A stretch of 64,000 bases of DNA from an uncultured Gemmatimonadaceae bacterium (GCA_963740565.1 CAVUFA010000003.1:48137-112136); one strand, 5' to 3'. Numbered from the stretch's first letter, positions 46,696 to 62,621 are shown. Translations and numbers: made by a program. Notes: generated by a model not told the origin, from the letters alone.

Positions 46696-47697
46696 CTACT
46701 TCGATTTCTCCGGCACGCCCAGCTCATGTCTCATCGATGCCGGAACCGGCTCATCGAGCTTCCAACGGACCGTGATCGGCTTGTCACCTTCCCAGCTCAC
46801 GAACCTGAGCGGCCCCGCATAGACGAACCCCATCGTCTTGCCCGCCTGCTTCGCGGCGGCACGCACAAAGAGATGCACGCCAATGTTCAACTGCTCGTGC
46901 CCAGCTAACCGCTTACCCGCATCGCTCTCCCGCGCCGTTCGGTTCTGACTCTGCCACTGAAACGTGGAAGGGTCCAGAAACGCATCGGTGTACTTGTGCT
47001 CCTCCGCTTCTCCCCGGTCCGGCGATAGCACGTACTCGTCGTTCAATCGCTGGAACATGACGCGATGACTGGTACCGGGCTGGCCCGCGCCTTCGCCGAA
47101 CCATTTTCGTAGCACTTCGCCGAGCACGTTCGCCTCGGCGCCTTTGCGATGCATGACGTTGACAGCGACCTTGACGAAGTTCGCGAGGTACGGCTCTGCA
47201 TCCGCGGTGACGTCAACCCAGCCTTCGGGAATCCCCGCTACCCTGTCGCGCGACGGGAGAAACAGGATGGGCTGACTGCCGGCGTGAGACACTCGGCACA
47301 CAATACGAGGCGCACCGTCCACGATTCCGGTCCGCCTGATGTACTGCGCGAGTCGCCACTCGGTGATCTCGCGAACCAACGCGGCAGTCGCATCACGGAG
47401 CGCATCGGGAACATCGAGGCGCGCTGCGAACTGCCTACTTTCGTAGCTGAAGTACTTCTCGCCGGCTGTACCCCTGCCGCCGACCCACGCGGCGATGGGG
47501 TGTTCCTCCAGGAGCGCGACTAGCGCAGAATCGTCGGCCAGCGCATCCGCGAATTCAGTCCGAAGCGCAGCACTTCGCTGCACGATGGTTCGCACGCGGG
47601 CAACAAGACGCTCGATCGTGATGGAGCCGGGGAGGGAGTCTTCCGCGAGCATCGCGAGGAGCACGACCATTTTGAAGCTCGGAGTGAGCGGAGTCAC
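46696..47697 (-). pseudogene. Orphan C-terminal (wH plus partial DUF3427 target-recognition) module, a paralogous fragment of the 50800 gene
   Basis: ORF 46696..47697 begins (GTG) exactly at the repeat boundary. It matches residues about 861-1228 of ORF 50800..54486 nearly identically. The 51 aa DSQPRYWQRYTRADVPKLFGFEFKAFESQSGVVERPGLVLLFVTLDKTGKP are missing. It keeps 18 C-terminal residues (EPVPASMRHELGVPEKSK) that the full-length gene has lost. Confidence 0.7.
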
Positions 47698-47716: not shown

Positions 47717-48517
47717 CTACCTCACGCCGAGTATCCAGCCCTCGACCGTCGCGACCATCTGCTCGCTTGGCTTTAGGCCAGGATGCAGGAAGTCCAACAG
47801 CGCACCGCTGCTGTCGGCCTGTCGCAACCACGCGGCGACGGTATAGGCGTCGTGTTGATGGTCGTTGCGATCCTCACGAGGGAAGCTCTGCTTCCATAGA
47901 GAGGGATACACCTCGACTATCGCCGACCGGCCGACGGGGATCTCCCAACCGTCGAATGGCCAGAAGTGGAGGTGTTCGCCGAGTTGTCGGCGCAGATAGC
48001 GAAGCCAGGGAATGCCGGCATGCGTGGACTTGGCGACCGAGCCTTGGCAATCGAAGTGAAAGACCGACTTTGCGGCGCCGGCGCGGAGCTCGGTGATGCG
48101 GCGCCAGCGGGAGTTGCCCTGACGCGCGGCGCCGTTTCCATGCAATCCGTCGCGCACGAAGTCGACGTACATATTGTCGTCATCCGTCGGCCAATGGCGC
48201 TGGAAGTCGTCGAGGAACGCCGGCCAGTCCGGTGGCAAGCGATGCGTCTCGAAGTAGCGCAACGGGAAAGAGAACCCGTGGTCGATGCCGACGATCGTGC
48301 GGCGTTCTTCACGTAACTGCTCCACCAGCCACTCTGCGATGCCACGCCGAGTCCAATACTTTCGGGCGCTCGGGGGCGGTGGCACTTCGGTTGGTAGCGC
48401 TGCCCGATCTGCGGCGTATACCCTGAGTCCTTTGAGGCTCGCCGTGGGCACCTGAGCGCCGGAGTAATCGATGCCGATATAACGCGCGAATCGCGGAAGG
48501 CTGCGGACGTCTGACAT
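47717..48517 (-). CDS. Hypothetical protein, possibly RNase-H-fold (DUF429-like)
   Basis: Inner ATG at 48517 (MSDVRSLPRFARYIGIDYSGAQ...TIVGIDHGFSFPLRYF...AIVEVYPSLW...HQHDAYTVAAWL). The spaced acidic motifs (IGIDYSG, GIDHGF, VEVYP, HDAY) resemble DUF429. The assignment is tentative. Confidence 0.45.
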   Translation of the reverse strand: MSDVRSLPRFARYIGIDYSGAQVPTASLKGLRVYAADRAALPTEVPPPPSARKYWTRRGIAEWLVEQLREERRTIVGIDHGFSFPLRYFETHRLPPDWPAFLDDFQRHWPTDDDNMYVDFVRDGLHGNGAARQGNSRWRRITELRAGAAKSVFHFDCQGSVAKSTHAGIPWLRYLRRQLGEHLHFWPFDGWEIPVGRSAIVEVYPSLWKQSFPREDRNDHQHDAYTVAAWLRQADSSGALLDFLHPGLKPSEQMVATVEGWILGVR

Positions 48518-48525
48518 GACCGCGA

Positions 48526-48801
48526 TCAAGAGGGGTTCGTCAGCCAACGCTTGAGATCCTCGGCGGTTGTCAGCACACGAGAACGCTCCGCGATGGACGC
48601 ATGTATCTGGAGTGGCGAATAGCCGGTGGGCATCAGGGATTCTTCGTTGACGACCCAACAATGACGCCAGTTCTTGGGTCTCCCCGACAGGACCGAGCGA
48701 GGAATCGTTCCGACGAGTCCGGCCACCGCTCCGTACGTTGCCCTTTGGTGATACTGATTCAGTGAATCGAGAATCGTATCGAGCAGAGACATTGAGACCA
48801 T
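48526..48801 (-). CDS. MGMT-family / alkyltransferase-like DNA-binding domain protein (no active-site PCHR motif)
   Basis: 91 aa. Sequence ...QRATYGAVAGLVGTIPRSVLSGRPKNWRHCWVVNEESLMPTG. The tYG.vA...G..pR.V pattern of the MGMT DNA-binding domain is present, but CWVVN stands where PCHRV is expected. Confidence 0.55.
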   Translation of the reverse strand: MVSMSLLDTILDSLNQYHQRATYGAVAGLVGTIPRSVLSGRPKNWRHCWVVNEESLMPTGYSPLQIHASIAERSRVLTTAEDLKRWLTNPS

Positions 48802-48831: not shown

Positions 48832-49833
48832 CTAGGACGACCTCGGCCGACGCCAGACTCCTCGTGAGCGTGAACGCCTCGGCGCTGCCGCCGGTATGCT
48901 CGTCAGCTCAATGAGGTAACGAGGCGTAAACGTGCGTTGTGTCACCGTGACCGGCCCCATCTTCGCGACGTTGAAGGCCTTTACTTGTCCTGATTCAGCT
49001 TCCAAACCATAAAGTAGAAGGTTGCCGGTTTGCGGTCGTCTGAACGAGTAAGGTTCGACAGTCCGCATTTGACCGGAATACGGGAACGATACCATGAGAC
49101 GGTTGGCGCCGGCGAACCGAATGGTTTCGATGGGAGCCCCTTCTCGCCAGAGTCTCGCGCTGGGCGCAACGACCGTTGACTCGCCACCTCGCGTTGCAAT
49201 GGGCGCCAGAGCAGGCGCCGCGATCACTGCTTCCTCGAGCCACGCCAGCGCCTCCGGCAGCCTGTCAATGAAGGTCTCGACATCGACGACTTCTGGAAGC
49301 TGATGCGCGATCATGTCCCGCCAGTCGGCCCTGATTTCCTCCGACCTCCGAATGAGCTCCACCAGCTCGTCGCGTGATGGCGCGACCAGCGACTTGCTTC
49401 GGCACTTCTCGAGCCAGATCTCGCGAGCGCGTTCGGTGTCGATCTGCTCGCCGCTGAACGCGACATACACCACGTCGTACAGATCTCTCGGGCGCGCGCG
49501 TTCAAAAAGAGCGCGAGTCTTCTCGGCGAGTAACTCTTCGAGGGTGTATGTAGAAACGCTCGTGCCAGGCGGGAGTTGATCTGGATAGGAGTGAAAGATC
49601 GGACGTGCGTCGGGCTCATCGACGATGACCTCGTGTTGGGTGATATCGAAAAGCAGGCGAGGTGAGAGAAAACACTTCTTGAGACACGTTCCGCCCTTCA
49701 GAACCCAGTTGGTCGAGATCTGGGGGTCGCCGCCATCAGCAAGCACCCACCCGAGCACGTAGTCTTTCTCGACAACAGCTGGATTCAGGCGCCATTCGCG
49801 CGCGCGGTCGACGATATCCTGCTTGGTGATCAC
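48832..49833 (-). CDS. abiEii: AbiEii/AbiGii-family nucleotidyltransferase toxin homologue with a shortened catalytic region and a C-terminal WYL-like domain
   Basis: N-terminus REWRLNPAVVEKDYVLGWVL...VLKGGTCLKKCFL and later LEELLAEKTRALFERARPRDLYDVVYV are AbiEii hallmarks. The RFSEDLDF acidic motif is replaced by SPRLLFDIT. The C-terminal 90 aa (IRFAGANRLMVSFPYSGQMRTVEPYSFRRPQTGNLLLYGLEAESGQVKAFNVAKM) follow the WYL-domain pattern. Confidence 0.7.
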   Translation of the reverse strand: MITKQDIVDRAREWRLNPAVVEKDYVLGWVLADGGDPQISTNWVLKGGTCLKKCFLSPRLLFDITQHEVIVDEPDARPIFHSYPDQLPPGTSVSTYTLEELLAEKTRALFERARPRDLYDVVYVAFSGEQIDTERAREIWLEKCRSKSLVAPSRDELVELIRRSEEIRADWRDMIAHQLPEVVDVETFIDRLPEALAWLEEAVIAAPALAPIATRGGESTVVAPSARLWREGAPIETIRFAGANRLMVSFPYSGQMRTVEPYSFRRPQTGNLLLYGLEAESGQVKAFNVAKMGPVTVTQRTFTPRYLIELTSIPAAAPRRSRSRGVWRRPRSS

Positions 49834-49839
49834 CGGATG

Positions 49840-50676
49840 TTACCGCTGATGCACGTCGGCGTTGATCCAGAGGCCCCACCGTTTCGAGAGCTTGCCGCGT
49901 GACCGAATCGCGGGATCGAGCTTGATGTAACCGGCACTCTTGCGAGACAACAGCTCGTCGATCACAACAGTTTCGCCGACGCCCATTGTTTCGAGGAGCC
50001 AGCCGAGACGTTTGGCCTGGGCGCCGCCACGAAGCCGAGGGAGCTCGCGCACGAGATCCGCGACGGATCCCTTGGAAGAGTCCAGATAATTCGTCAACGC
50101 ATCAGCCACATTACGAACTCCCCCGAGCCACGATGGATCGCGCAGCGCGTCGACGAGCGTGCGTTCGCGCGATGAGACGTGCACCCGCTCGCTGCCTCTC
50201 CAGACGGTCGTTAGGTTGGCTATTCGTACAGCTGGCACTCGCTTGATGACAAAGCGAAGTCCCAGGACTGCAACTTCGCGCGCTCTCACCGAAGCGGCGG
50301 AGACCACGAACGTCTTCGCGAAGATCTGCTCGGTGAGCCCCCAATGTTCGGCTGCGCTCCACCCACCGATGTAGCAGGGAGTGAAGAGGTGGCTCGCCAC
50401 CAGCCATGGATCGTGATGTGTGGTGGTCGCGCCGGATTCGGCTTCAAGCGGTAGAATGAAGTACTGGCCGCGTCTCAGCCGCGTCACCCAACCAGTTCGC
50501 GCGAGGTTCGACAGAAGTGCCGAAGCTCGCCCGCGCGGACGCCCAAGGGTCACTGCCGCCGTGTTTACGTCGATGATCCCGCTCGGGGCTGAGCGGGCGA
50601 GCAGGGAGAGCGTGCGTTTGGCCTCGGAGGGGAGCGGCGCTGACATTTTTTTGGTATATTCTGCGTGTAGTAACAT
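49840..50676 (-). CDS. abiEi: AbiEi-family type IV TA antitoxin / transcriptional regulator
   Basis: N-terminal wHTH (LLSNLARTGWVTRLRRGQYFILP). AbiEi_4-like C-terminus (YIGGWSAAEHWGLTEQIF...SSRERTLVDALRDPSWLGG). It lies 6 nt upstream of abiEii. Confidence 0.85.
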   Translation of the reverse strand: MLLHAEYTKKMSAPLPSEAKRTLSLLARSAPSGIIDVNTAAVTLGRPRGRASALLSNLARTGWVTRLRRGQYFILPLEAESGATTTHHDPWLVASHLFTPCYIGGWSAAEHWGLTEQIFAKTFVVSAASVRAREVAVLGLRFVIKRVPAVRIANLTTVWRGSERVHVSSRERTLVDALRDPSWLGGVRNVADALTNYLDSSKGSVADLVRELPRLRGGAQAKRLGWLLETMGVGETVVIDELLSRKSAGYIKLDPAIRSRGKLSKRWGLWINADVHQR

Positions 50677-50750: not shown

Positions 50751-51900
50751 CTACTTCTCCGGCACGCCCAGCTCGTCTCTCATCGGCGCCGGTACCGGCT
50801 CAGTCGAGCTTCCAACGGACCGTGATCGGCTTGTCACCTTCCCAGCTCACGAACCTGAGCGGTCCCGCATAGACGAACCCCAGCGTCTTGCCCGCCTGCT
50901 TTGCAGTGGCCCGAACGAAGAGATGCACTCCAATGTTCAACTGCTCGTGCCCAGCTAACCGCTTACCCGCATCGCTCTCCCGCGCCGTTCGGTTCTGACT
51001 CTGCCACTGAAACGTGGAAGGGTCCAGAAACTCATCGGTGTATTTGTGCTCCTCAGGCTTGCCAGTCTTGTCCAGCGTGACGAATAGCAGCACGAGCCCG
51101 GGTCGCTCGACCACGCCGGATTGCGATTCGAACGCCTTGAATTCAAAGCCAAACAGCTTCGGCACGTCCGCGCGCGTGTAGCGCTGCCAATAGCGTGGCT
51201 GCGAGTCCGCTTCTCCCCGGTCCGGCGATAGTACGTACTCGTCGTTCAATCGCTGGAACATGACGCGATGACTGGTGCCTGGCTGGCCCGCGCCTTCGCC
51301 AAACCATTTTCGCAGCACATCGCCGAGCACATTCGCCTCGGCGCCTTTGCGATGCATGACGTTGACAGCGACCTTGACGAAGTTCGCGAGGTACGGCTCT
51401 CCATCCGCGGTGACGTCAACCCAGCCTTCGGGAATCCCCGCCACCCTGTCGCGCGACGGGAGAAACAGGATGGGCTGACTGCCGGCATGAGACACTCGGC
51501 ACACAATACGCGGCGCACCGTCCACAATTCCGGTCCGCCTGATGTACTGCGCGAGTCGCCACTCGGTGATCTCGCGAACCAACGCGGCAGTCGCATCACG
51601 GAGCGCATCGGGAACATCGAGGCGCGCTGCGAACTGCTTACTCTCGTAGCTGAAGTACTTCTCGCCGGCTGTACCCCTGCCGCCGACCCACGCGGCGATG
51701 GGATGTTCCTCCAGGAGCGCGACTAGCGCAGCATCGTCGGCCAGCGCATCCGCGAATTCAGTCCGAAGCGCAGCACTTCGCTGAACGATGACTCGCACGC
51801 GGGCAACAAGACGCTCGATCGGGATGGAGCCGGGGAGGGCCTCTTCCGCGAGCATCGCGAGGAGCACGACCATCTTGAAGCTCCGCGTGAGCGGAGTCAC
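50751..51900. repeat. Direct repeat copy B (3' end of the full-length gene)
   Basis: See copy A. The homology ends at ...GAGCGGAGTCACC (about 51900 in B, about 47698 in A). Confidence 0.9.
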
Positions 51901-54336
51901 CTCGAGCGATTGCAGAAACGCTCGCAGCCGCGACTCGGCGGCGTCCGCGTCGGCGTCCAAGTCTCCCATGGTGCGCACGAACTGGAACCAGGAGCCGTAA
52001 CCCTGCCGAGTCGCTCGCGGATCGTAGCCGTCGTGAAATGCTTCGGTCGCGGTTGGGCGGACACCGTTGCGGTCGCGGAAGTCCGTGTAGTACGACATGA
52101 GCGCCTGTGGCCGGTCCATGTCGCGCTGCAGAAGCGTCCGCAGTATTTCGATGGCCTCGAGATCGTAGGTGACCGAGCAGCCGGGAGGCAGGAGTTCACC
52201 AGCGCGGCCTTCGTCGACCAGCCGAAGCGCGTATGCCGTGCTCGCGGCGCTTCCGTCCAACTGAAAGAGCGTGCGCGGCTTGAGGAGAAACGACCGATGG
52301 TTGCCGATGTAGTCGATGACTTTGAGCCGCTTCCCCGAGCGATAGCGAAGCCCTCGCCCGAACTGCTGCAGCCACAGCACCGGTGACTCCGTGGGGCGCA
52401 GCATGAGGATGGTGTCGACATCAGGCAGGTCCACGCCTTCATTGAACATGTCGACCGCGAAGAGCACATCGAGCTGACCATCCTGCAACTGCTCCAGCGA
52501 ACGGGCGCGTGGATCGCTCGTGGGCCCAGAATGGACGGACGCGCACCGGAGTCCGGCACCTAGGCAGAAATCTTTCATGAAGTCCGCGTGCCGTAGCGAC
52601 ACGCAGAAAGCGAGGGTTCGCGTTCCTCCGCGTCGTCGCATCTGATCGACGGCATTCTCGGCGCGGGACTCGATCGCGAGGCTCGCCGTGAGCTCCTTCT
52701 CGTCGAAACGCCCGTTGCGCCATGGAATGTTGGTGTAGTCAACTTCGTCCGGCACACCGTAGTAGTCGAAGGGGGCGAGCAGTCCTCGGCGAATTCCTTC
52801 GACGAGATCACACCGGTACACGAGGTTCTCGCCGCAAAGCGAGAGAAGATCCGCGCCGTCGGTGCGCTCGGGCGTTGCCGTGAGGCCAAGCAGGAAGCGC
52901 GGGGTAAAGTGATCCAACAGTCGTTGATACGTCGTCGCGCTGGCGTGATGAAACTCGTCGACAACGATGTAGTCGAACGCGGTAGCGAAGAAACGCTCGA
53001 GATGCGCCCGGCGATTCAGCGTTTGAATGGACGCGAAGGTGACGTCGGCATTCGTCTCGCGGCTGGCCCCCATGTATTTGCCGAGTATGGCCTGCGGACG
53101 GATAGTGCGAAACGTGCGCATGGCCTGGTCGAGAATCTCTTCGCGATGTGCCACGAAGAGCACGCGCTCGGCGCCAAAAGCCTCGGTGTCGAAGGCGCTC
53201 AGCCAGGTTTTGCCGAGCCCCGTCGCGAGAACGACGAGACCAGCGGTGTTCCCTTGGGCACGCGTGGCCGCCAGCGCTTCGAGCGCCTCGCGTTGAACAG
53301 GGTGCGGCTCGGGGACCAGAAGCGGGGGCTCGACAGGAACGGGCAACACAATGGCCTGCATGCGCCGTCGCTTCTGGTACGCCGCTATTACGTCAGGAGT
53401 AACGCGGACGGCTCGTTCGTCAGCGAAAACGTGCTCGAACGCATCGTGGACTGTCCGAAAACCAGCGCCATCGCGGGAGGTAATCACGCGATAGTTCCAC
53501 TCGATGCCCTCACGTAGCGCAGTCTGCGTGAGGTTCGAGCTTCCGACAAACGCCGTTCCCCGTCCGTCGCCTTCGGCGCAGATGTAGCTCTTGAGGTGGA
53601 AGCTCGTTCCGTCGGCCTGGAAGAAGCGGAGGTCAAGTCCTCCACCGATGTCCAGCAAGCGACGCAGAGCGTCTGGCTCGGTACCATCGAGGTAGTCTCC
53701 CGTCACCAGTCGCACTCTTCCGCCGCGGCCGATGACGTCGCGAAGGTGTTCCTCGACGAGCTTCACGCCGCTCACCATCGTGAAGGCGACCGCAATGTCG
53801 ACATGGCTCGCGCCGGCGATGTGCGAGACCAGGTGCGGAAGAAGCGGATCGCCGGCGCCTCGGATCAGCGGTTCGCCATGAGGGGCACCGGACTTCGCGG
53901 GATCGGTCAGGTAGTTGGCGAGCGACGGGATCACGAACCGCAACCCGCCACGCGGGTCGGGGAGGTCTCCCTTATACCTCGGAATCACATGCAGATGCAC
54001 GTGGTCTATCGTCTGACCAGCAGCCGCACCTACGTTGACGCCAATGTTGTATCCGTCGGGGGTGTGCTCCTGGTCAATGATGGCTCTTAACCGCGCGACC
54101 AGCGCAAGCATTTCCTGCTGCTCGGCCGGAGAAGTGTCGAACCAGCTGCTGATATGCCGTCGCGGTATGACAAGGCCGTGACCGGGCGAGACGGGGTGCG
54201 TGTCCCAAAGAGCTCGCGAACGCTCTTCGACAAGGAGACAGGCATCATCTGAAATGGAGCAGAGGGCGCAATCGATCGGAACGTGATCGCCGAGTGAGTC
54301 ATCAGGTGTGGGCTCTCGGGAGCGCTCGGTACTCAA
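50800..54336 (-). CDS. HIT domain / PLD-family nuclease / SF2 helicase / DUF3427 fusion protein (SauUSI-like type IV modification-dependent restriction enzyme architecture plus an extra N-terminal HIT domain)
   Basis: ORF 50800..54486. HIT: CALCSI...GHGLVIPRRH...GQTIDHVHLHVIPRY. PLD: VDIAVAFTM...FHLKSYICAEGDGRGTAFVGSSNLT. Helicase motifs: LATGLGKT (I), VVDEFHH (II), GLTATPER (III), QQFGRGLR (VI). C-terminal DUF3427 region: YWQRYTRADVPKLFG...FQWQSQNRT. The likely start is the TTG at 54336, overlapping the SprT-like stop (TTGA). The in-frame ATGs at 54423 and 54486 would overlap that gene by 90-150 nt. Confidence 0.85.
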   Translation of the reverse strand: MSTERSREPTPDDSLGDHVPIDCALCSISDDACLLVEERSRALWDTHPVSPGHGLVIPRRHISSWFDTSPAEQQEMLALVARLRAIIDQEHTPDGYNIGVNVGAAAGQTIDHVHLHVIPRYKGDLPDPRGGLRFVIPSLANYLTDPAKSGAPHGEPLIRGAGDPLLPHLVSHIAGASHVDIAVAFTMVSGVKLVEEHLRDVIGRGGRVRLVTGDYLDGTEPDALRRLLDIGGGLDLRFFQADGTSFHLKSYICAEGDGRGTAFVGSSNLTQTALREGIEWNYRVITSRDGAGFRTVHDAFEHVFADERAVRVTPDVIAAYQKRRRMQAIVLPVPVEPPLLVPEPHPVQREALEALAATRAQGNTAGLVVLATGLGKTWLSAFDTEAFGAERVLFVAHREEILDQAMRTFRTIRPQAILGKYMGASRETNADVTFASIQTLNRRAHLERFFATAFDYIVVDEFHHASATTYQRLLDHFTPRFLLGLTATPERTDGADLLSLCGENLVYRCDLVEGIRRGLLAPFDYYGVPDEVDYTNIPWRNGRFDEKELTASLAIESRAENAVDQMRRRGGTRTLAFCVSLRHADFMKDFCLGAGLRCASVHSGPTSDPRARSLEQLQDGQLDVLFAVDMFNEGVDLPDVDTILMLRPTESPVLWLQQFGRGLRYRSGKRLKVIDYIGNHRSFLLKPRTLFQLDGSAASTAYALRLVDEGRAGELLPPGCSVTYDLEAIEILRTLLQRDMDRPQALMSYYTDFRDRNGVRPTATEAFHDGYDPRATRQGYGSWFQFVRTMGDLDADADAAESRLRAFLQSLEVTPLTRSFKMVVLLAMLAEEALPGSIPIERLVARVRVIVQRSAALRTEFADALADDAALVALLEEHPIAAWVGGRGTAGEKYFSYESKQFAARLDVPDALRDATAALVREITEWRLAQYIRRTGIVDGAPRIVCRVSHAGSQPILFLPSRDRVAGIPEGWVDVTADGEPYLANFVKVAVNVMHRKGAEANVLGDVLRKWFGEGAGQPGTSHRVMFQRLNDEYVLSPDRGEADSQPRYWQRYTRADVPKLFGFEFKAFESQSGVVERPGLVLLFVTLDKTGKPEEHKYTDEFLDPSTFQWQSQNRTARESDAGKRLAGHEQLNIGVHLFVRATAKQAGKTLGFVYAGPLRFVSWEGDKPITVRWKLD

Positions 54337-54905
54337 CGCGCCACCGATCCTCTGTGTGTCGCGCGCTGAGTCGGCACAGCCCGCGTTGCGACCAAACGAG
54401 TTAGGAGGCCGTTGGTCTGACATTCGGGACACAACCAGGCTGACATCACTCGTCGCGCTCGGCGGCGCCATTGGCACACCGGGCATGTGTGCACGACGGC
54501 CGGGGCAACGCTCTGTGCGCTTCTACTCTCAACACCACGTGCTGACACACCGCGCGGTGCGGCCGTCACTGTTGGCGGGTAGCCTGCTGCCCTAACGAGT
54601 GCAGCCCATTCGGGACCGTGGGCTCGCGGGGGAGCTGCACCCTTGGCGGCGGCTTGCCAAAATGCGACGACGTGCGCGGCCTCGTGGCAGAGCACTCGAA
54701 GCAAGCGGTCTCTCGAGCCGCGTCTGAGGGCGGCACTTAGGGTTACCTGTCCAGTGGAGGGAACGGCACGACCGAGCGTGCGCTGGAGGCGCGTACTGAA
54801 GTTGACTGTGAGCTCTTTGTGGAGCGTGGGCACGTGCCACCGCTCGCCCAGTCGACGAACGGCTGCATCAATCGTGGAATCCGGTGCGCGAGATCGCTGA
54901 GTCAT
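54333..54905 (-). CDS. SprT-like zinc metalloprotease domain protein with a C-terminal zinc ribbon
   Basis: 190 aa. HExxH in LLRVLCHEAAHVVAF, followed by HGPEWAALV. CxxC...CxxC (CPVCQWRRRARRVMSAWLCPEC). Its ATG overlaps the NUDIX stop (ATGA). Confidence 0.75.
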   Translation of the reverse strand: MTQRSRAPDSTIDAAVRRLGERWHVPTLHKELTVNFSTRLQRTLGRAVPSTGQVTLSAALRRGSRDRLLRVLCHEAAHVVAFWQAAAKGAAPPRAHGPEWAALVRAAGYPPTVTAAPRGVSARGVESRSAQSVAPAVVHTCPVCQWRRRARRVMSAWLCPECQTNGLLTRLVATRAVPTQRATHRGSVAR

Positions 54906-55306
54906 GCGCTTGCGGCCGCATTGTTTGAAAGCCGGAACTCGACATATCGGCGATCACTTGGGGCGAGAGGCAGCGCAAGGAGTGAATCAGGCAGCGCCCA
55001 TTTCATGTCGATGTGTTCATGACATGTCGGATTGCCCTCGATGGAGACGGGGACAAAGGCGATGAGAAATGCTGACCCAGGGTCGGCGATCGCGAACTCC
55101 TCGACGCCCACGGCGGTGACCTGGACGCCGAGTTCTTCGCGCAGTTCCCGGTACGCGGCCTCAAAGTCGCTCTCGCCGGGCTCGCACTTGCCGCCGGGGA
55201 ATTCCCAAAGGCCCCCGTGGCGTTTGTGGTGAGGGCGTTGGCAGATGAGCACCTGGTCGCCACGGCTGATGACGGCGGCGATAACGCGAACATTAGGCTC
55301 GGGCAT
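54902..55306 (-). CDS. NUDIX hydrolase (MutT-like (d)NTP pyrophosphohydrolase)
   Basis: ATG at 55306 (MPEPNVRVIAAVISRGDQVLICQR). NUDIX box GGLWEFPGGKCEPGESDFEAAYRELREELGV. Confidence 0.85.
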   Translation of the reverse strand: MPEPNVRVIAAVISRGDQVLICQRPHHKRHGGLWEFPGGKCEPGESDFEAAYRELREELGVQVTAVGVEEFAIADPGSAFLIAFVPVSIEGNPTCHEHIDMKWALPDSLLALPLAPSDRRYVEFRLSNNAAASA

Positions 55307-55520
55307 GAGGCAAAACTGCGTGCGCATGAAGCTGAGCGCCAGAACTCGCGGCTTCGTATCGGTATTGCGAGCAACAACAGTATAGAGCGTGCTCAGCACG
55401 GACCTTCTTAATGGACCGCCAGGGAAGTTCTTCACTGGACAATCGAGCTAGGCTATCCGTGAAGGTATCAGCGATGAAGAAGTTCACGCGTCGGTCCGAG
55501 ACCTTGACCCTACGATGTGC

Positions 55521-56384
55521 TCATTTCCCAATCAGCGGGCACGCTCGAACGAGATCTGCGAGCGTATCCACAGCATGTTCGAAGCGAGTGCGTAACTGTT
55601 GGTCCCGTTGCTGCAACTCCTTACGGGTGCTTGGCGCATGCCCGGACTGATTTCGATGCGGTGTTAGACCGCGAACTCGCGCCCACAACGCCTTGTCAAT
55701 TCGTACTGTACTTGCCAACAGCTTGGGAAAGTCGGCGTTCAGATCAACGTATTCCAGTACCCTTGCCCACGCGGCGGTTCTAAACCTGGGCTTCGACGGA
55801 GGGGGCAGGGTTCTCCACAACAACAACCGGTCGATCTCGGTCGCAACGGTTCGGCTTCCCTTCTCGATCAGGTCGTAGACACGACCGCACCCTTTCGCGG
55901 CGTCCCCGTTGCGAAACGTCTCTTCGGCTTGATGGAGTTGCGCAAAGTAGCCTCTTGGATACCGAGTTCGATCTACCGGCCTGACACCAAAGAGTGATAA
56001 TGAGACCGCGGGGAGCAGCGACCGGACCGTTTTTCCATCGAATTCCACGACTCCTATGCCCCGTTTTCTAGCCTGACGCACGAGATTGAGAAGTTGGGCG
56101 GCTGGCCCTCCAGAGGGAACGGCGACGAACAGCCTGATGGGAAGGCCCGCGGTGAGGCACTCTACGACGAACGTGTCAAGTGCGTTCGTGTACGTGCCAT
56201 CGTTCACTTCAATGGCGAGTATACTCTTGTCGTGGTTCTCCGCCGAGAGAGTTGGCCGGTAAGACAGGTCGCTTGCGATTTCCTCCTCTGCGCGGAAGCG
56301 CTTCGCACCTTCCATCTTCGCGAAGTGCTTTCGTGCAGCTTCAGCGACAGGCACAAGAGAGCCGGCCAATGCACGATACTGCAT
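55521..56384 (-). CDS. Hypothetical 287-aa protein; the C-terminal helical region contains an R-N-x-x-x-H (HEPN-like) motif
   Basis: ORF with operon-like spacing (2 nt after the ParB-like stop). No family recognised in the N-terminal half (SILAIEVNDGTYTNALDTFVVECLTAGLPIRLFVAVP). The C-terminal half is helical, with LTPHRNQSGHAP. Confidence 0.55.
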   Translation of the reverse strand: MQYRALAGSLVPVAEAARKHFAKMEGAKRFRAEEEIASDLSYRPTLSAENHDKSILAIEVNDGTYTNALDTFVVECLTAGLPIRLFVAVPSGGPAAQLLNLVRQARKRGIGVVEFDGKTVRSLLPAVSLSLFGVRPVDRTRYPRGYFAQLHQAEETFRNGDAAKGCGRVYDLIEKGSRTVATEIDRLLLWRTLPPPSKPRFRTAAWARVLEYVDLNADFPKLLASTVRIDKALWARVRGLTPHRNQSGHAPSTRKELQQRDQQLRTRFEHAVDTLADLVRACPLIGK

Positions 56385-56386
56385 TC

Positions 56387-57334
56387 TTACTTCCCCAGAA
56401 GGTCGCGGGCCACACTTACCAACGCGCGCAACCTCTTACGGAGCTCAACGTCGATGTCTTCGGGATGCAGTTGCTTCAATCGCTGCAGCAAACCGTCCAG
56501 ACGAACGGCGATGTCCTTCTCCGTATAGGCGCCGGCGACCGTGTGCTCGTACGCCTGGGCTATGGAGTAGTCGTTGGAGGTGAACAAACGGCTAAGCGCC
56601 TTCTTAGCGGCCGGTACATTCGCCTTCACGCGCGCAGCACGGGCAATCTTGGCCACGTCCCGAAAGTGCGTACGGTTCGCGATCACGTCGGTCCTAAATT
56701 TCTGGACGAGGACACGCCTGACCTTGTTCTTGTCATCAATGACATCAGGCATCGCCCGCTCGACGGTGGTGAGGGCGCGTTCCATCTCGATGAAGAAATC
56801 CTCCGTAAGGCGCTGTTCTCGTTTGGGTTTCTTCAGTTCGCTCTGAAGCTGTTCCTGGAACTCTGCTGGGAGCCCCAGGAGGTAACGACAGCGGCGTATG
56901 ACACCTCTTGCAAGTCCGGTATTCCTGGCGATTTCTGCCTCGGTGGGGCGACTCTTCTTCGCGCGCTCTAGCAGGTTGATGATGACAGCTAGCTTGGTAG
57001 CAATGGTCAAAAGGTCCCACTGCTCTCGGAGCGCGTGGATGTTGAACATCAAAAGCAGGTTCGTAAGGCGGTCGGGCTTCTCCTGAACGAGTGCGGGAAT
57101 GGTCTTGAGGTTCAGCTTAAGAGCGCAGCGCCAGCGCCTTTCGCCGTCGATCAACACAAAGCGTCCTTTCTCGCGATACACAGATACGGGAACCTGTATT
57201 CCGTGAATCGCGATCGACTCCATTAGTTCGTCCATCTCCTTCTGCCGGAAGTGGATCCTGGGATTCTCGCGGTTGGGATCCACGCTATCGACCCTGATTT
57301 GAGCGAGTGTGGCGTTGGCAGCATCAATGGGCAT
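56387..57334 (-). CDS. ParB/Srx N-terminal-domain protein with a central HTH
   Basis: IRVDSVDPNRENPRIHFRQKEMDELMESIAIHGIQVPVSVYREKGRFVLIDGERRWRCALKLNLKTIPALV is the ParB N-domain, including the GERRW box. HTH-like segment PTEAEIARNTGLARGVIRRCRYLLGLP. Confidence 0.8.
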   Translation of the reverse strand: MPIDAANATLAQIRVDSVDPNRENPRIHFRQKEMDELMESIAIHGIQVPVSVYREKGRFVLIDGERRWRCALKLNLKTIPALVQEKPDRLTNLLLMFNIHALREQWDLLTIATKLAVIINLLERAKKSRPTEAEIARNTGLARGVIRRCRYLLGLPAEFQEQLQSELKKPKREQRLTEDFFIEMERALTTVERAMPDVIDDKNKVRRVLVQKFRTDVIANRTHFRDVAKIARAARVKANVPAAKKALSRLFTSNDYSIAQAYEHTVAGAYTEKDIAVRLDGLLQRLKQLHPEDIDVELRKRLRALVSVARDLLGK

Positions 57335-57343
57335 CGGCGATCC

Positions 57344-58201
57344 TCAGATCGGCGCTGTGTTCGAAATGATCAACTCGTAAGCGAAACGTCGATTGTCAGC
57401 GAACCCGGCGATCTGGCGGCGCACTCGCACTCGACGATGGATCCAGTTGACCGCAAGCTTTCGTGCCTCCGAACAGTCGGCGAAGCTGAGGAGAAACTTC
57501 GCTCCCCTGGCGTGGAGCTTGTCGAGGTGCGCACCAAGTCGATCGATGTCTTGTTGTAGAAACCTTCGCGGACCGTAGTCGCGAAACACACGCCGAGCAC
57601 GCACGAAGAAAGGAGGGTCTAGGTAAACGAAGTCGCCGTTGCGTACATCGCGCAGCGTGTGGCCGAAATCGCAAGAGCGTAGGCGCGCAGTCTTCAATCG
57701 GTCTGCTGCATTGATGAAGTCAGCTAGCGCCGGCATCGCACCCGTGCGCGAAGGCGCAAAGGGAACGTTGAATTGCCCACTGTTATTCGTACGATAGAGA
57801 CCGTTGAAGCAGTTGCGATTCAAATAGAGAAAGCGAACGGCCCTGCGGGCTTTCGCAATGCGGGCGGGCACCAGCGTGCGAAGCGCTTCATACGTGGCTG
57901 GCGTTTGAGGAATGCTCGTCACCTCACGCCAAAGCGTTACCGGATCGTCCCGTAGTTCCTCGTAGAATTCGATGAGGTGACTGTTCGAGTCCGCCAAGAG
58001 TGCGCGTGCAGGTCGTATGACGAAGAAAAGCGCAGACGAACCGCAAAACGGTTCTACGTATCGCTCGAAATCAGGAGACCAATACTGTCGAAGCAGTGGG
58101 AGAAGCTGCCGCTTGCTACCTGCCCAGCGTAGGATGGGTCGTCCACTGGCCTCCGGTACTGGTGATGAGGGCACACTCACTTGGTCGTCCCGGACTGACA
58201 C
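57344..58201 (-). CDS. Dam-family (D12-class) N6-adenine DNA methyltransferase
   Basis: Motifs LRWAGSKRQLLP, YVEPFCGSSALFF (SAM binding), FVYLDPPF (DPPY-type catalytic motif). Confidence 0.85.
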   Translation of the reverse strand: MSVRDDQVSVPSSPVPEASGRPILRWAGSKRQLLPLLRQYWSPDFERYVEPFCGSSALFFVIRPARALLADSNSHLIEFYEELRDDPVTLWREVTSIPQTPATYEALRTLVPARIAKARRAVRFLYLNRNCFNGLYRTNNSGQFNVPFAPSRTGAMPALADFINAADRLKTARLRSCDFGHTLRDVRNGDFVYLDPPFFVRARRVFRDYGPRRFLQQDIDRLGAHLDKLHARGAKFLLSFADCSEARKLAVNWIHRRVRVRRQIAGFADNRRFAYELIISNTAPI

Positions 58202-58990
58202 GCGAGATCAACGACGAGTAGCTCCTTGCAGCGGAAACGGCGGGAATCAGGCGCGCCTTCGACGGGCGCGCCGAGTTGTCGCGCGCTGTCAAGGTGTCCG
58301 GTGTGACCGATAAAGCGAACGGTGACGTCTACCGCGTCGGTCTCTCCGAGCTCCCACGCATCGGACGATCGTGCATGCTTGCGAAGATCGAATGATGCCG
58401 GCACGTCGAAGTCCGAAGAGTTGGGTCGCGCACTGTTGGCCTTGGGCCGTCGCACTCGACTGAGCCGATTATTCCGCAACGCTGCACGATCGAGGTCGTA
58501 ACCGACGAGGTATCCGTTGGAGCCGAGGAAGAACACTCCATATGATTGCACACGACGCTGCGCGACCTCATCCCGCTCCATCGACCTGTACGAGAACGAC
58601 AGCTCCTTGCGTCGCGACAGAGCACTGGCGGCTATTTCGAACACATACGCGCACGAGCGGCGCGCCGGCTTCGTGGCCCGCGTTGCTTTGCCCTTTTTCG
58701 TACTCTTCACTCGATCGCGCGGCACTGATTCCTCATGGTCTGCTGAAGGCACGCTTCAATATCGCAGGGGTCCTCGCTGGCGCTCTGACTCCTCGGGATG
58801 ACGGGAACTTCCACTAGCAATCGTACCGGTTTACCGAGAGCGAGATCAACACGCCACGTAACGTGGCGATACATGGCGTCACCTCCTGGCTAACGACTGC
58901 AGTGTGCGTCTCGGGGGATAAACGCATGGTGGGCCGCACGTTCAGCGCCCGGTATCGGTTCACAGAAGTGGCTCCGCTTTTCTGTACAGC
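58177..58990 (-). pseudogene. Decayed PafBC/WYL-type regulator (WYL plus WCX domains retained, HTH region frameshifted)
   Basis: ORF 58177..58752 has the WYL-domain pattern (LSFSYRSMERDEVAQRRVQSYGVFFLGSNGYLVGYDLDRAALRNNRLSRV) but no HTH. Upstream pieces in two other frames (…VSQEVTP… and MYRHVTWRVDLALGKPVRLL from the ATG at 58874 with an AGGAGG RBS) look like remnants of the usual LA.elgVS.RTiyRDi..L...G.Pi helix-turn-helix. Confidence 0.5.
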
Positions 58991-61392: not shown

Positions 61393-62621
61393 GGAAGCTC
61401 TGCACAGGTTAAAGCGCGATCCATCGTTATGAAATCAGCGCGGTTTGCACGCGTCAGGTCTCGCCGGATGACGGCGGGGGCTCCGAGTTCTCCCGCGGTT
61501 CAGCGGGGCGCGGGGTGCTTCGGTAGCGCGGGAGGGTCGGCGGCCGGAATCTCATGCCAGGCTCGGGATGAATCCTTTGGGCAGCAGCCGTTTCCGCAGC
61601 CGGTACAGATTGGCCAAGGCGAACATACTGAAGGCGCGCGCCGCGTTCTTGGCAATCCCGCGGTACCGCACCTTCACGAAACCCCACAGATGCTTCACGA
61701 CGTGAAAGGGATGCTCGCCCATGGCCCGGTGGCGCGAGCGCGTTTGATTGATCGCCTTCTCGGACTCGGTCAAGGGCCGCTTCTTCGTGCCGCGTCGATT
61801 CACGCGGTACTTGCCGCCTTCGAGCTGCCACTGTTCGCGATGGTCCGCTTTCCAGTACGCTTGATCCCCGTACAGCGTCCCCTCCTGCCCGTGCAACAAC
61901 TCAGGCAGCTGCGTGATGTCCGCCACCGCCGCATCCGTCGCTCGCACCGTGTGCACCACCCCGCGGCGGTCCGTCCCGATATGCAGTTTCATCCCGAAAT
62001 GCCAGTGCTTCCCCTTCTTCGTTTGGTGCATCTCGGGGTCCCGCTGCTTTGCCGCGTTCTTGGTCGAGCTCGGGGCCGCAATGATCGTGGCATCCACAAT
62101 CGTCCCCGCCTTCAAGAGCAACCGCTTCTCCTCCAACACCGTGCGGATCTCGGCAAAGATCGCTTCGGGGAGCTGCTCGCGTTCCAGCAGGTGGCGGAAC
62201 CGCAGGATGGTGGTCTCGTCCGGAATCACGTCCTCGCCCAACTCAACCCCGGCGAAACGCCGCATCGACTCACTGTCGTAAATGGCGTCCTCCGCCTGGG
62301 GATCCGACAGGTTGAACCACTGCTGCAGAAAGTAGATCCGGAGCATCCGTGCCAGACCCACGGGCTGCCGGCCGTTCCCGGCCTTGGGGTAATGGGGGGC
62401 GATCAACGCCAGCAGCCGCGTCCACGGGATTACGGCGTCCATCTCCGCCAGAAAGCGTTCGCGCCGCGTCACCTTTCCCTTCAGACTCCACGCCATCGAC
62501 GCCAAGGTCCGTTGCTGTCCCATGGGAAGGCCTCCGAAACAGGAACCAACCAGTCAGGAGATCACGCACGCCTAACGCGACAGCAATATACCATCATGTC
62601 CTTCACTTGTGCAGAGTTTCC
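61393..62621 (-). mobile_element. IS5-family insertion sequence (1229 bp) with imperfect terminal inverted repeats and a 4-bp CTAG target-site duplication
   Basis: Left end GGAAGCTCTGCACAGGT. Reverse complement of the right end GGAAACTCTGCACAAGT. CTAG at 61389-61392 and 62622-62625. One transposase ORF inside. Confidence 0.9.
61552..62523 (-). CDS. IS5-family DDE transposase
   Basis: 323 aa, closely parallel to E. coli IS5 InsH as I recall it: YPKAGNGRQP, LRIYFLQQWFNLSD, DETTILRFRHLLE, GTIVDATIIAAPSSTKN, QRDPEMHQTKKGKHWHFGMKLHIG, GDQAY, EHPFHVVKHLWGFVKVRYRG. Confidence 0.9.
   Translation of the reverse strand: MGQQRTLASMAWSLKGKVTRRERFLAEMDAVIPWTRLLALIAPHYPKAGNGRQPVGLARMLRIYFLQQWFNLSDPQAEDAIYDSESMRRFAGVELGEDVIPDETTILRFRHLLEREQLPEAIFAEIRTVLEEKRLLLKAGTIVDATIIAAPSSTKNAAKQRDPEMHQTKKGKHWHFGMKLHIGTDRRGVVHTVRATDAAVADITQLPELLHGQEGTLYGDQAYWKADHREQWQLEGGKYRVNRRGTKKRPLTESEKAINQTRSRHRAMGEHPFHVVKHLWGFVKVRYRGIAKNAARAFSMFALANLYRLRKRLLPKGFIPSLA

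Follow-up and report, generated by a model that had tools for sequence, protein, structure and literature searches.

In its usual description, a type IV restriction enzyme consists of a base reader and a nuclease, to which a motor is added in some cases. The gene examined here raises the question of what a fourth enzymatic activity, kept under purifying selection, contributes to such an enzyme. It occupies positions 50800 to 54336 on the minus strand of a 64,000-nucleotide stretch of DNA from an uncultured Gemmatimonadaceae bacterium (GCA_963740565.1 CAVUFA010000003.1:48137-112136; the window, hereafter, is this whole stretch), and its predicted product places a histidine-triad (HIT) domain ahead of a PLD nuclease, an SF2 helicase and a C-terminal DUF3427 region. 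We lean modestly towards an overall explanation in which this is a SauUSI-type enzyme equipped with an accessory HIT domain that would act on a small nucleotide-linked compound.

The frame from 50800 to 54486 (-) is open end to end. The stop or frameshift that the initial annotation feared might hide between the HIT and PLD regions is absent, and conservation of the fusion in at least 120 homologous clusters answers the same worry. All of the motifs quoted in that annotation are found in the translation (HVHLHVIPR, the intact triad, together with FHLKSY...GSSNLT, GLGKT, DEFH, TATP and QQFGRGLR). The putative start at 54336 is a TTG that overlaps, as TTGA, the stop codon (TGA) of the SprT-like gene upstream; in homologues the protein starts a few residues ahead of a conserved CPFC motif, and this TTG is nearer to that point than the ATG at 54486. 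The parts of the gene are listed below, where A1 is an alignment of 22 N-terminal regions and A6 one of 45 full-length proteins.

50800..54336 (-): whole HIT-PLD-SF2 helicase-winged-helix-like-DUF3427 gene; 1177 codons plus stop, putative TTG start
53911..54270 (-): HIT domain, aa 23-142, with an N-terminal CxxC, PGH, GQT, the triad and the tail GDLPDPRGGLRFVIPSLANY
53989-54003 (-): HIT triad H112/H114/H116, invariant in A1 and A6
53851..53910 (-): variable HIT-PLD linker, aa 143-162
53407..53850 (-): PLD-family nuclease, aa 163-310 (Pfam PLDc_2, alignment to SauUSI 7clg, invariant residues)
53590-53598 (-): PLD catalytic HxK, H247/K249, with GSSN at residues 265-268
52267..53304 (-): SF2 helicase/ATPase, aa 345-690, with motifs I GLGKT, II DEFH, III TATP and VI QQFGRGLR
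51622..52266 (-): helical coupler and winged-helix-like segment, including 'SFKMVVLLAML', aa 691-905
50803..51621 (-): beta-rich target-recognition region, DUF3427/SRA-like, aa 906-1177 (Pfam, Foldseek)

Every domain named in the initial annotation, and their SauUSI order, was borne out by Pfam, PADLOC, the SauUSI structure and Foldseek. In the numbering of the 1228-aa longest open reading frame, in which Pfam positions are given, HIT matches aa 83-172 (E=7.8e-23, 81.4 bits against a 21.5-bit cut-off) and PLDc_2 matches aa 225-334 (E=7.3e-6). DUF3427 (E=1e-20, 74.6 bits against a cut-off of 27.7) and the two helicase profiles, ResIII (E=9.5e-38) and Helicase_C (E=8.8e-14), complete the series. 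The PADLOC model of type IV enzymes (mREase_IV) matches with E=1.3e-118, and SauUSI (7clg_A) aligns across 676 residues in a phmmer search (E=1.6e-82). SauUSI is likewise the top Foldseek match of the full-length AlphaFold model, which has a mean predicted local distance difference test (pLDDT) score of 83 (E=6.5e-44, 1033 columns). The coupler and winged-helix-like segment (aa 691-905), with a modelled secondary structure of H-E-H-H-H...E-E, has no Pfam match, and the SauUSI alignment reaches about aa 832 within it. Each SauUSI-family hallmark that sequence can assess is present, namely the PLD nuclease, the SF2 motifs, DUF3427 and overall homology, and the product is almost certainly a single-chain, ATP-dependent type IV restriction endonuclease of this family.

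The target-recognition end is consistent with this assignment. The last 492 residues are modelled with a pLDDT of 85 as a helical coupler, a helix-strand-helix winged-helix-like segment and two beta-rich lobes. A Foldseek search of the PDB with this model returned SauUSI, followed by the SRA domains of KRYPTONITE, SUVH5 and SUVH9 and by the 5-hydroxymethylcytosine (5hmC)-specific AbaSI; the matched SRA domains are from structures bound to methylated or hydroxymethylated DNA. The initial annotation described the DUF3427 of SauUSI as its modified-base reader, a role that the literature presumes (PMC3141236, PMC6765204), and the fold similarity to SauUSI and to SRA domains supports that role. The modelled C-terminal fold is SRA-like and predicted to read a modified base.

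The fusion is conserved well beyond this genome. The best matches, drawn from JGI, ENA, NCBI and Logan assemblies, make up at least 120 homologous protein clusters with 54-76% identity, and nearly all of 120 clusters carry the same precomputed domains (HIT, PLDc_2, ResIII, Helicase_C and DUF3427). Across A1 and A6 the HIT triad, the histidine of PGH, the PLD HxK and GSSN, and helicase motifs I, II, III and VI are invariant, and the N-terminal CxxC of the HIT domain is nearly so (22 + 45 sequences); a triad histidine is lost in only 3 of the 120 homologues (P0005, P0037 and P0084). Invariant columns account for 37% of the helicase, 19% of the PLD nuclease, 16% of the HIT domain and 8% of the target-recognition region. 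The HIT-PLD linker has a mean identity of 36% and a length of 19-29 aa in A6, with longer insertions in A1, and the low-confidence stretch of the model (pLDDT below 50, aa 123-157) extends into it. In a GTDB survey using one genome per species, the HIT-PLD fusion was found in about 27 loci, each from a different species, in more than eight phyla. Carriers include Acidobacteriota, Planctomycetota, Gemmatimonadales, Myxococcota (including Sorangium cellulosum So ce26), Mycolicibacterium and other Actinomycetes, Clostridia, Verrucomicrobiota, and Gamma- and Betaproteobacteria; the nearest relatives of the enzyme come from metagenome-assembled genomes (MAGs) of Gemmatimonadota, Acidobacteriota and Planctomycetota. 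These numbers refute a one-off fusion. The architecture is rare yet widely dispersed, which fits a horizontally moving defence gene. Carriage by phages was considered and rejected, no relatives being found on IMG/VR contigs.

Two variants of the architecture were seen among the related loci. In three of them a Peptidase_S24-like C-terminus replaces DUF3427 behind the HIT, PLD and helicase parts (L015 7158-11894, L016 8025-12311 and L019 7992-12641); this form occurs, for example, in Sorangium cellulosum So ce26, and the L015 enzyme has an extra N-terminal extension of about 280 aa with no family match. Elsewhere a HIT-less SauUSI-like paralogue (PLD-helicase-DUF3427) adjoins a HIT-bearing gene or a stand-alone HIT gene (L013 2974-6066, L016 4579-7749 and L067 8598-11768), which suggests two-paralogue systems.

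What kind of HIT domain is this? Its closest solved relatives are the 192-aa HIT protein 6af2 (E=4e-17) and the mycobacterial diadenosine tetraphosphate (Ap4A) phosphorylase Rv2613c (3wo5/3ano; E=7e-17), followed by archaeal and bacterial HIT proteins, Fhit (1fhi; E=6e-13) and Hint1 (about 1e-9); aprataxin is not among the PDB sequence matches at E<=1e-8. The top NCBIfam match is the ATP adenylyltransferase model, far under its cut-off, and the motif HxHxHxxPRxxGD is of the Fhit/Ap4A-phosphorylase type. By sequence, the domain is placed nearer to the Fhit/Ap4A-phosphorylase branch than to Hint, GalT, DcpS or aprataxin. The conserved aspartate of 'WDxFPVSPGH' aligns by eye with what we take to be its counterpart, the ribose-binding aspartate of Hint. 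A hallmark of the clade is the tail IPRYxGDxxDPRGGVRxVIP; its part DPRGGVRxVIPxxxNY is found in every relative in which the region is readable and was not used as a search criterion. The stretch GDxxDPRGGVRxVIPxxxNY (53866-53970, aa 123-157) is the most conserved outside the catalytic motifs. Such conservation combined with low pLDDT, as discussed below, is the pattern expected of a segment that folds only in a complex, and the tail may become ordered only upon dimerisation or upon contact with a partner or substrate. The domain is very probably an active accessory enzyme, either a nucleotide hydrolase or a transferase.

The same clade occurs beside other nucleases. When the HIT domain by itself was searched exhaustively with phmmer against 1.84 billion representatives, 167 of them matched at E<=1e-30 and 3015 at E<=1e-10. 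A Pfam scan of the 123 of the 150 top clade representatives longer than 150 aa, many of which are contig fragments, found PLDc_2 in 25, ResIII in 21, HNH in 2, and NUDIX_4 and a methyltransferase in 1 each. In GTDB, 53 further loci match only the HIT part, at 43-56% identity and mostly as stand-alone proteins of 125-145 aa, and in about 37 of these a nuclease is adjacent or fused. One recurrent neighbour is an HNH endonuclease of about 350 aa (20 loci; Pfam HNH/HNH_4), whose start usually overlaps the HIT stop. A second family (18 loci) shares a common N-terminal domain and ends in either HNH_2 or a NOV_C/DUF3883 PD-(D/E)XK nuclease. The stand-alone HIT gene overlaps the HNH or NOV_C gene in about 32 loci, L027 contains a direct HIT-HNH fusion, and six loci have a split HIT gene directly ahead of or behind a PLD-helicase gene (L014, L031, L050, L067, L070 and L078). 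The NOV_C partner matches the PADLOC candidate PDC-S36 (E=6e-98) and the type IV model (2.8e-7), and at its N-terminus it resembles the head domain of ScoMcrA, a type IV enzyme (5zmm; E=2.7e-5). A domain shared by the N-terminus of the HNH partner ('ATYKFALLLAL') and the target-recognition segment 'SFKMVVLLAML' was considered and rejected, the hhalign match covering 20 columns with a non-significant E=0.11. With fusions or adjacency to several nuclease types and invariant catalytic residues, the HIT domain appears to be a portable, catalytically constrained accessory module of probable type IV nucleases.

The association is strong and not exclusive. No nuclease neighbour was found in 16 of the 53 loci, some of which are on short contigs. 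Most of these nuclease-free loci that were scanned are housekeeping in character (enolase, ribonucleotide reductase, ABC ATPase, UDP-glucose dehydrogenase), which rules out a clade confined to defence. The HIT proteins at the housekeeping loci are as similar to the enzyme's HIT domain as are the nuclease-linked ones; the chemistry of the clade is therefore probably generic, and the module probably derives from ordinary cellular HIT enzymes and has changed little since its recruitment. A different arrangement was noted in Bacteroides caecigallinarum (L032 1934-3055), where one open reading frame joins an N-terminal class I S-adenosylmethionine-dependent methyltransferase to a clade HIT domain, with an HNH gene of the recurrent family directly upstream.

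In the window the enzyme gene is preceded by two genes on the same strand.

54333..54905 (-): SprT-like zinc metalloprotease (HEAAH; C-terminal CxxC...CxxC zinc ribbon), Pfam SprT-like E=7e-12
54902..55435 (-): NudG/MutT-like NUDIX hydrolase, Pfam NUDIX and NUDIX_4; overlaps the SprT-like start by 4 nt

The SprT-like stop in turn overlaps the start of the HIT-PLD enzyme gene by 4 nt, and the three genes appear to form one translationally coupled operon. An SprT-like gene is also found upstream of the fusion in L001, L002, L003, L005, L006, L007, L010, L012, L082, L084 and L085, and an SprT-like domain is fused to the N-terminus of the enzyme in homologues P0049 and P0055. The NUDIX protein matches the PADLOC candidate PDC-S07 (E=2.9e-30), and among NCBIfam models it fits best the pyrimidine (d)NTP diphosphatase of the NudG type (E=3e-25), at 88.6 bits and thus under the 156-bit equivalog cut-off. 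A NUDIX gene occupies the same position in L003, L012, L082, L085 and L087; NUDIX adjacency was counted in 6 loci, alongside a NUDIX-SprT fusion (P0348) and a separate NUDIX-HIT fusion. The existence of three module pairings (NUDIX-SprT, SprT-HIT-enzyme and NUDIX-HIT) as single polypeptides argues for a functional unit.

The enzyme gene is part of a low-GC defence island at about 46-58 kb (GC 0.57-0.63 against about 0.67), with the following neighbours.

55521-58752 (-): block of WYL, D12 N6-adenine methyltransferase, ParB-N-domain and 287-aa genes, separated from the NUDIX gene by an 85-nt gap
57344-58201 (-): D12-class N6-adenine methyltransferase within that block
49840-50676 (-): AbiEi-like antitoxin, between repeat copies
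48832-49833 (-): AbiEii nucleotidyltransferase toxin, between repeat copies
47717-48661 (-): 314-aa unannotated open reading frame, between repeat copies, with only a weak NCBIfam match, to a MobB/unknown-domain fusion

The 287-aa open reading frame has no family match. Neither it nor the methyltransferase has a homologue in the 80 related loci or the 8 looked-up contexts, and the ParB-like gene recurs in one related locus only (L027). The methyltransferase, ParB-like and 287-aa genes were accordingly rejected as parts of the system and treated as neighbours, and the block may be a separate restriction-modification-like or regulatory system. Downstream, a direct repeat of about 1.15 kb and about 96% identity (46706-47690 against 50755-51900) duplicates the 3' part of the enzyme gene 4 kb away. 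It starts exactly at 'TPLT.SFKMVVLLAML', and the open reading frame at 46696-47697 (-) belongs to the downstream copy of the target-recognition 3' end, which has a 153-nt in-frame deletion in the DUF3427 region and a 1-nt deletion at the stop codon that extends the frame. The two copies flank a 3-kb insert with the AbiE cassette, and the repeat is probably what an insertion of the cassette or a recombination event left behind, and not a working module for an alternative specificity. No tRNA gene was found in the window and no integrase was seen; a promoter and terminator scan stayed at background level. A 323-aa open reading frame at 61552-62523 (-), 3 kb beyond the low-GC stretch, was judged IS5-type transposase-like by eye only.

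How might these parts work together? SauUSI requires ATP and two sites, and cuts DNA containing 5-methylcytosine and 5hmC; it cuts DNA of T4gt (5hmC) well and glucosylated T4 DNA poorly (PMC3141236). In the present enzyme, the winged-helix-like and SRA-like/DUF3427 region would read the modified base, the ATP-driven SF2 motor would communicate between sites, and the PLD nuclease would cut, presumably as a dimer. The HIT domain, on its variable and probably flexible linker, would work alongside the nuclease and outside its catalytic cycle and, like the NUDIX protein, would act on a small nucleotide-linked compound, a nucleoside monophosphate joined to a group X (NMP-X). Candidates, in no firm order, are a nucleotide-activated donor for phage hypermodification, a dinucleoside polyphosphate and a modified nucleotide. 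Destruction of a donor would leave invader DNA readable by the nuclease, while removal of modified nucleotides would keep them out of host DNA and so avoid self-restriction, a task in which the NudG-like NUDIX protein would do likewise for modified dCTP. A small NMP-X is favoured because the HIT occurs separately in either gene order and pairs with three nuclease folds, because equally similar HIT proteins serve in housekeeping loci and because a nucleotide pyrophosphatase travels with it; judged by this pattern, the odds of a small-nucleotide substrate against a DNA or protein adduct are about even. The roles suggested in the initial annotation, which range from nucleotidyl adducts on DNA, the enzyme or a partner to a dinucleotide signal, stay hypothetical.

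A more specific version has the HIT domain and NudG-like NUDIX protein forming a counter-counter-defence that destroys the activated compounds behind phage DNA masking, such as UDP-glucose for the glucosylation of hydroxymethylcytosine, further NDP-linked donors or modified dNTPs. It would bring about by enzyme what is classically seen when T-even phages are propagated in the absence of UDP-glucose, namely that modification-dependent restriction can then attack them. NDP-sugars are known to be split by two superfamilies, HIT and NUDIX. Since glucosylation protects against SauUSI, an activity blocking glucosylation would be useful to such an enzyme, and if the idea were true the same logic would extend to the HNH- and NOV_C-linked HIT genes. 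We nevertheless regard this version as rather unlikely: where UDP-glucose is concerned, the NUDIX protein is of the MutT/NudG and not the NDP-sugar type, and the HIT domain has more in common with Ap4A enzymes than with the GalT/NDP-sugar branch.

Several further observations weigh against the broader explanation that we favour, a SauUSI-type enzyme with a HIT domain acting on a small nucleotide-linked compound. The PLDc_2 score of 26.3 bits is slightly under the 27-bit Pfam cut-off, and the DUF3427 match is confined to profile positions 129-267, the C-terminal half. Modification dependence, the target base and the substrate of the HIT domain are all assigned by homology, and a D12-class methyltransferase gene lies on the same strand 3 kb upstream. 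The tail at aa 123-157 has a pLDDT below 50 in the monomer model despite its strict conservation. Both NUDIX and SprT-like genes are absent from 4 of the 8 looked-up contexts, each is missing from about half of the examined loci, and the presence of the SprT-like protease suits an adduct-processing role better.

That role is the first of two alternatives for the HIT domain. It would process macromolecular adducts at the break, stripping AMP from 5'-adenylated DNA or from ligase-Lys-AMP so that breaks stay unsealed; in a variant, it would hydrolyse the phosphoramidate between the PLD histidine and phospho-DNA while the SprT-like protease clears DNA-bound or crosslinked protein. HIT enzymes such as Hint and aprataxin hydrolyse P-N and AMP-phosphate linkages, PLD nucleases pass through a phospho-histidine intermediate, and SprT-like proteases are best known from DNA-protein crosslink repair. 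Here the protease gene is translationally coupled upstream in at least 12 loci, besides the two fusions, and the HIT domain is physically tethered to a DNA-bound motor. We consider adduct processing unlikely, although worth weighing: the same clade has HNH and PD-(D/E)XK nucleases among its partners, and these cut without a covalent intermediate, the domain has no aprataxin-type zinc finger or DNA-binding extension, and the PDB matches at E<=1e-8 include Ap4A phosphorylase and Fhit and not aprataxin. Equally similar clade members at housekeeping loci also count against it, and the NUDIX link points to nucleotide pools. Alternatively, the domain may be mainly regulatory or structural, either as an obligate dimer that nucleates the PLD dimer or as an alarmone (Ap4A) gate in which catalysis only resets a switch. 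HIT proteins form homodimers, and a PLD nuclease with a single motif has to bring two HxK motifs together; the HIT domain is N-terminal and adjoins the PLD nuclease, its conserved tail of low pLDDT resembles a segment that folds only in a complex, and its closest relatives bind Ap3A or Ap4A. Such a role is distinctly unlikely in our view, as stand-alone and split HIT proteins accompany monomeric-type HNH and NOV_C partners in either gene order, and the catalytic set is near-invariant, with the triad broken in so few homologues.

Two remaining explanations concern the enzyme as a whole. It might not be modification-dependent, serving instead as the nuclease arm of a conventional system in which the nearby N6-adenine methyltransferase shields host DNA. 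The WYL, D12, ParB-like, unknown-ORF (open reading frame), NUDIX, SprT-like and HIT-enzyme genes are indeed packed on one strand with small gaps or overlaps, and DUF3427 fusion genes are often near methyltransferases (Lutz et al., PMC6765204). We find this highly improbable, however, because the D12 methyltransferase is conserved in no related locus or looked-up context; the 85-nt gap between the gene blocks, the SRA-like target-recognition region and the strong SauUSI homology count against it as well. Finally, the fusion could be an artefact of assembly or annotation, or a decaying gene. Some GTDB MAG copies are interrupted (L003, L007, L024, L025, L055 and L076), and 4 kb downstream there is a shortened second copy of the 3' end. 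The continuous frame and more than 100 independent full-length homologues rule this out as far as sequence data can, and with catalytic residues invariant in three enzymatic modules the probability that remains is next to nil.

The fusion matters in several ways. Nucleases of three unrelated folds are joined by a HIT domain, in many cases together with NUDIX and SprT-like protease partners. If HIT and NUDIX act on nucleotide pools or hypermodification donors, they would add a new layer to the arms race over modified phage DNA, and the donor model, if true, would explain how hosts defeat protective hypermodification. If instead HIT and SprT process nucleotidyl or protein adducts on DNA, restriction would be linked to the end-processing of eukaryotic repair (aprataxin, Tdp1 and Spartan). 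In either case, the clade-specific tail motif is a simple handle for finding the whole family.

Among known proteins, Rv2613c (3wo5/3ano) and Fhit (1fhi) share the motif HxHxHxxPRxxGD with the enzyme's HIT domain; they differ in being free-standing metabolic enzymes, and the tail DPRGGVRxVIPxxxNY is specific to the HIT clade of the enzyme. The upstream NUDIX protein finds its best NCBIfam match, below cut-off, in E. coli NudG (Orf135), a pyrimidine (d)NTP and 5-methyl-dCTP pyrophosphohydrolase; NudG is reported to prefer 5-methyl-dCTP (PMC3744803, citing O'Handley et al. 2001). The initial annotation knew of no restriction or defence enzyme carrying a HIT domain. As to restriction this holds, in that the literature searched contained no paper on a HIT domain fused to or coupled with a restriction nuclease, nor any description of the clade-specific tail, the HNH/NOV_C recurrence or the NUDIX and SprT partners. 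As to defence it does not, since PADLOC includes ThsC, a HIT-family accessory of Thoeris type II (PMC8565338), which is the only HIT precedent found in defence. ThsC resembles the present case as a HIT protein attached to a defence system, and the PADLOC ThsC model matches the enzyme's HIT domain at a generic HIT level (E=1.1e-11). It differs as a separate protein beside the ThsA/ThsB signalling genes, proposed to act on a messenger of the cyclic ADP-ribose type, whereas here the HIT domain is coupled to a nuclease; none of the ten neighbouring genes within 8 kb on either side encodes a TIR or SIR2 domain, and the locus does not qualify as Thoeris type II.

The DUF3427-PD-(D/E)XK enzymes of the McaZI and YenY4I groups (Lutz et al. 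2019, PMC6765204) share the DUF3427 reader and the defence-island setting, and in vivo they restrict T4gt, a phage with 5hmC. They differ in being without helicase, PLD and HIT, their nuclease being DUF3883/NOV_C, and a nuclease of this NOV_C type is a recurrent neighbour of the stand-alone clade HIT genes. SauUSI of Staphylococcus aureus (7clg) has its PLD nuclease, SF2 helicase, coupler and DUF3427 arranged in the order found here, with all catalytic motifs in common. Relative to SauUSI, the present enzyme adds about 140 aa of N-terminal HIT domain and linker, has a C-terminal region about 100 aa longer with a winged-helix-like insert, such that Pfam DUF3427 covers only the second half, and is accompanied by NUDIX and SprT-like genes in a high-GC, Gram-negative-type lineage. 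By these comparisons it would represent not a new class of system but a conserved fourth activity attached to type IV restriction.

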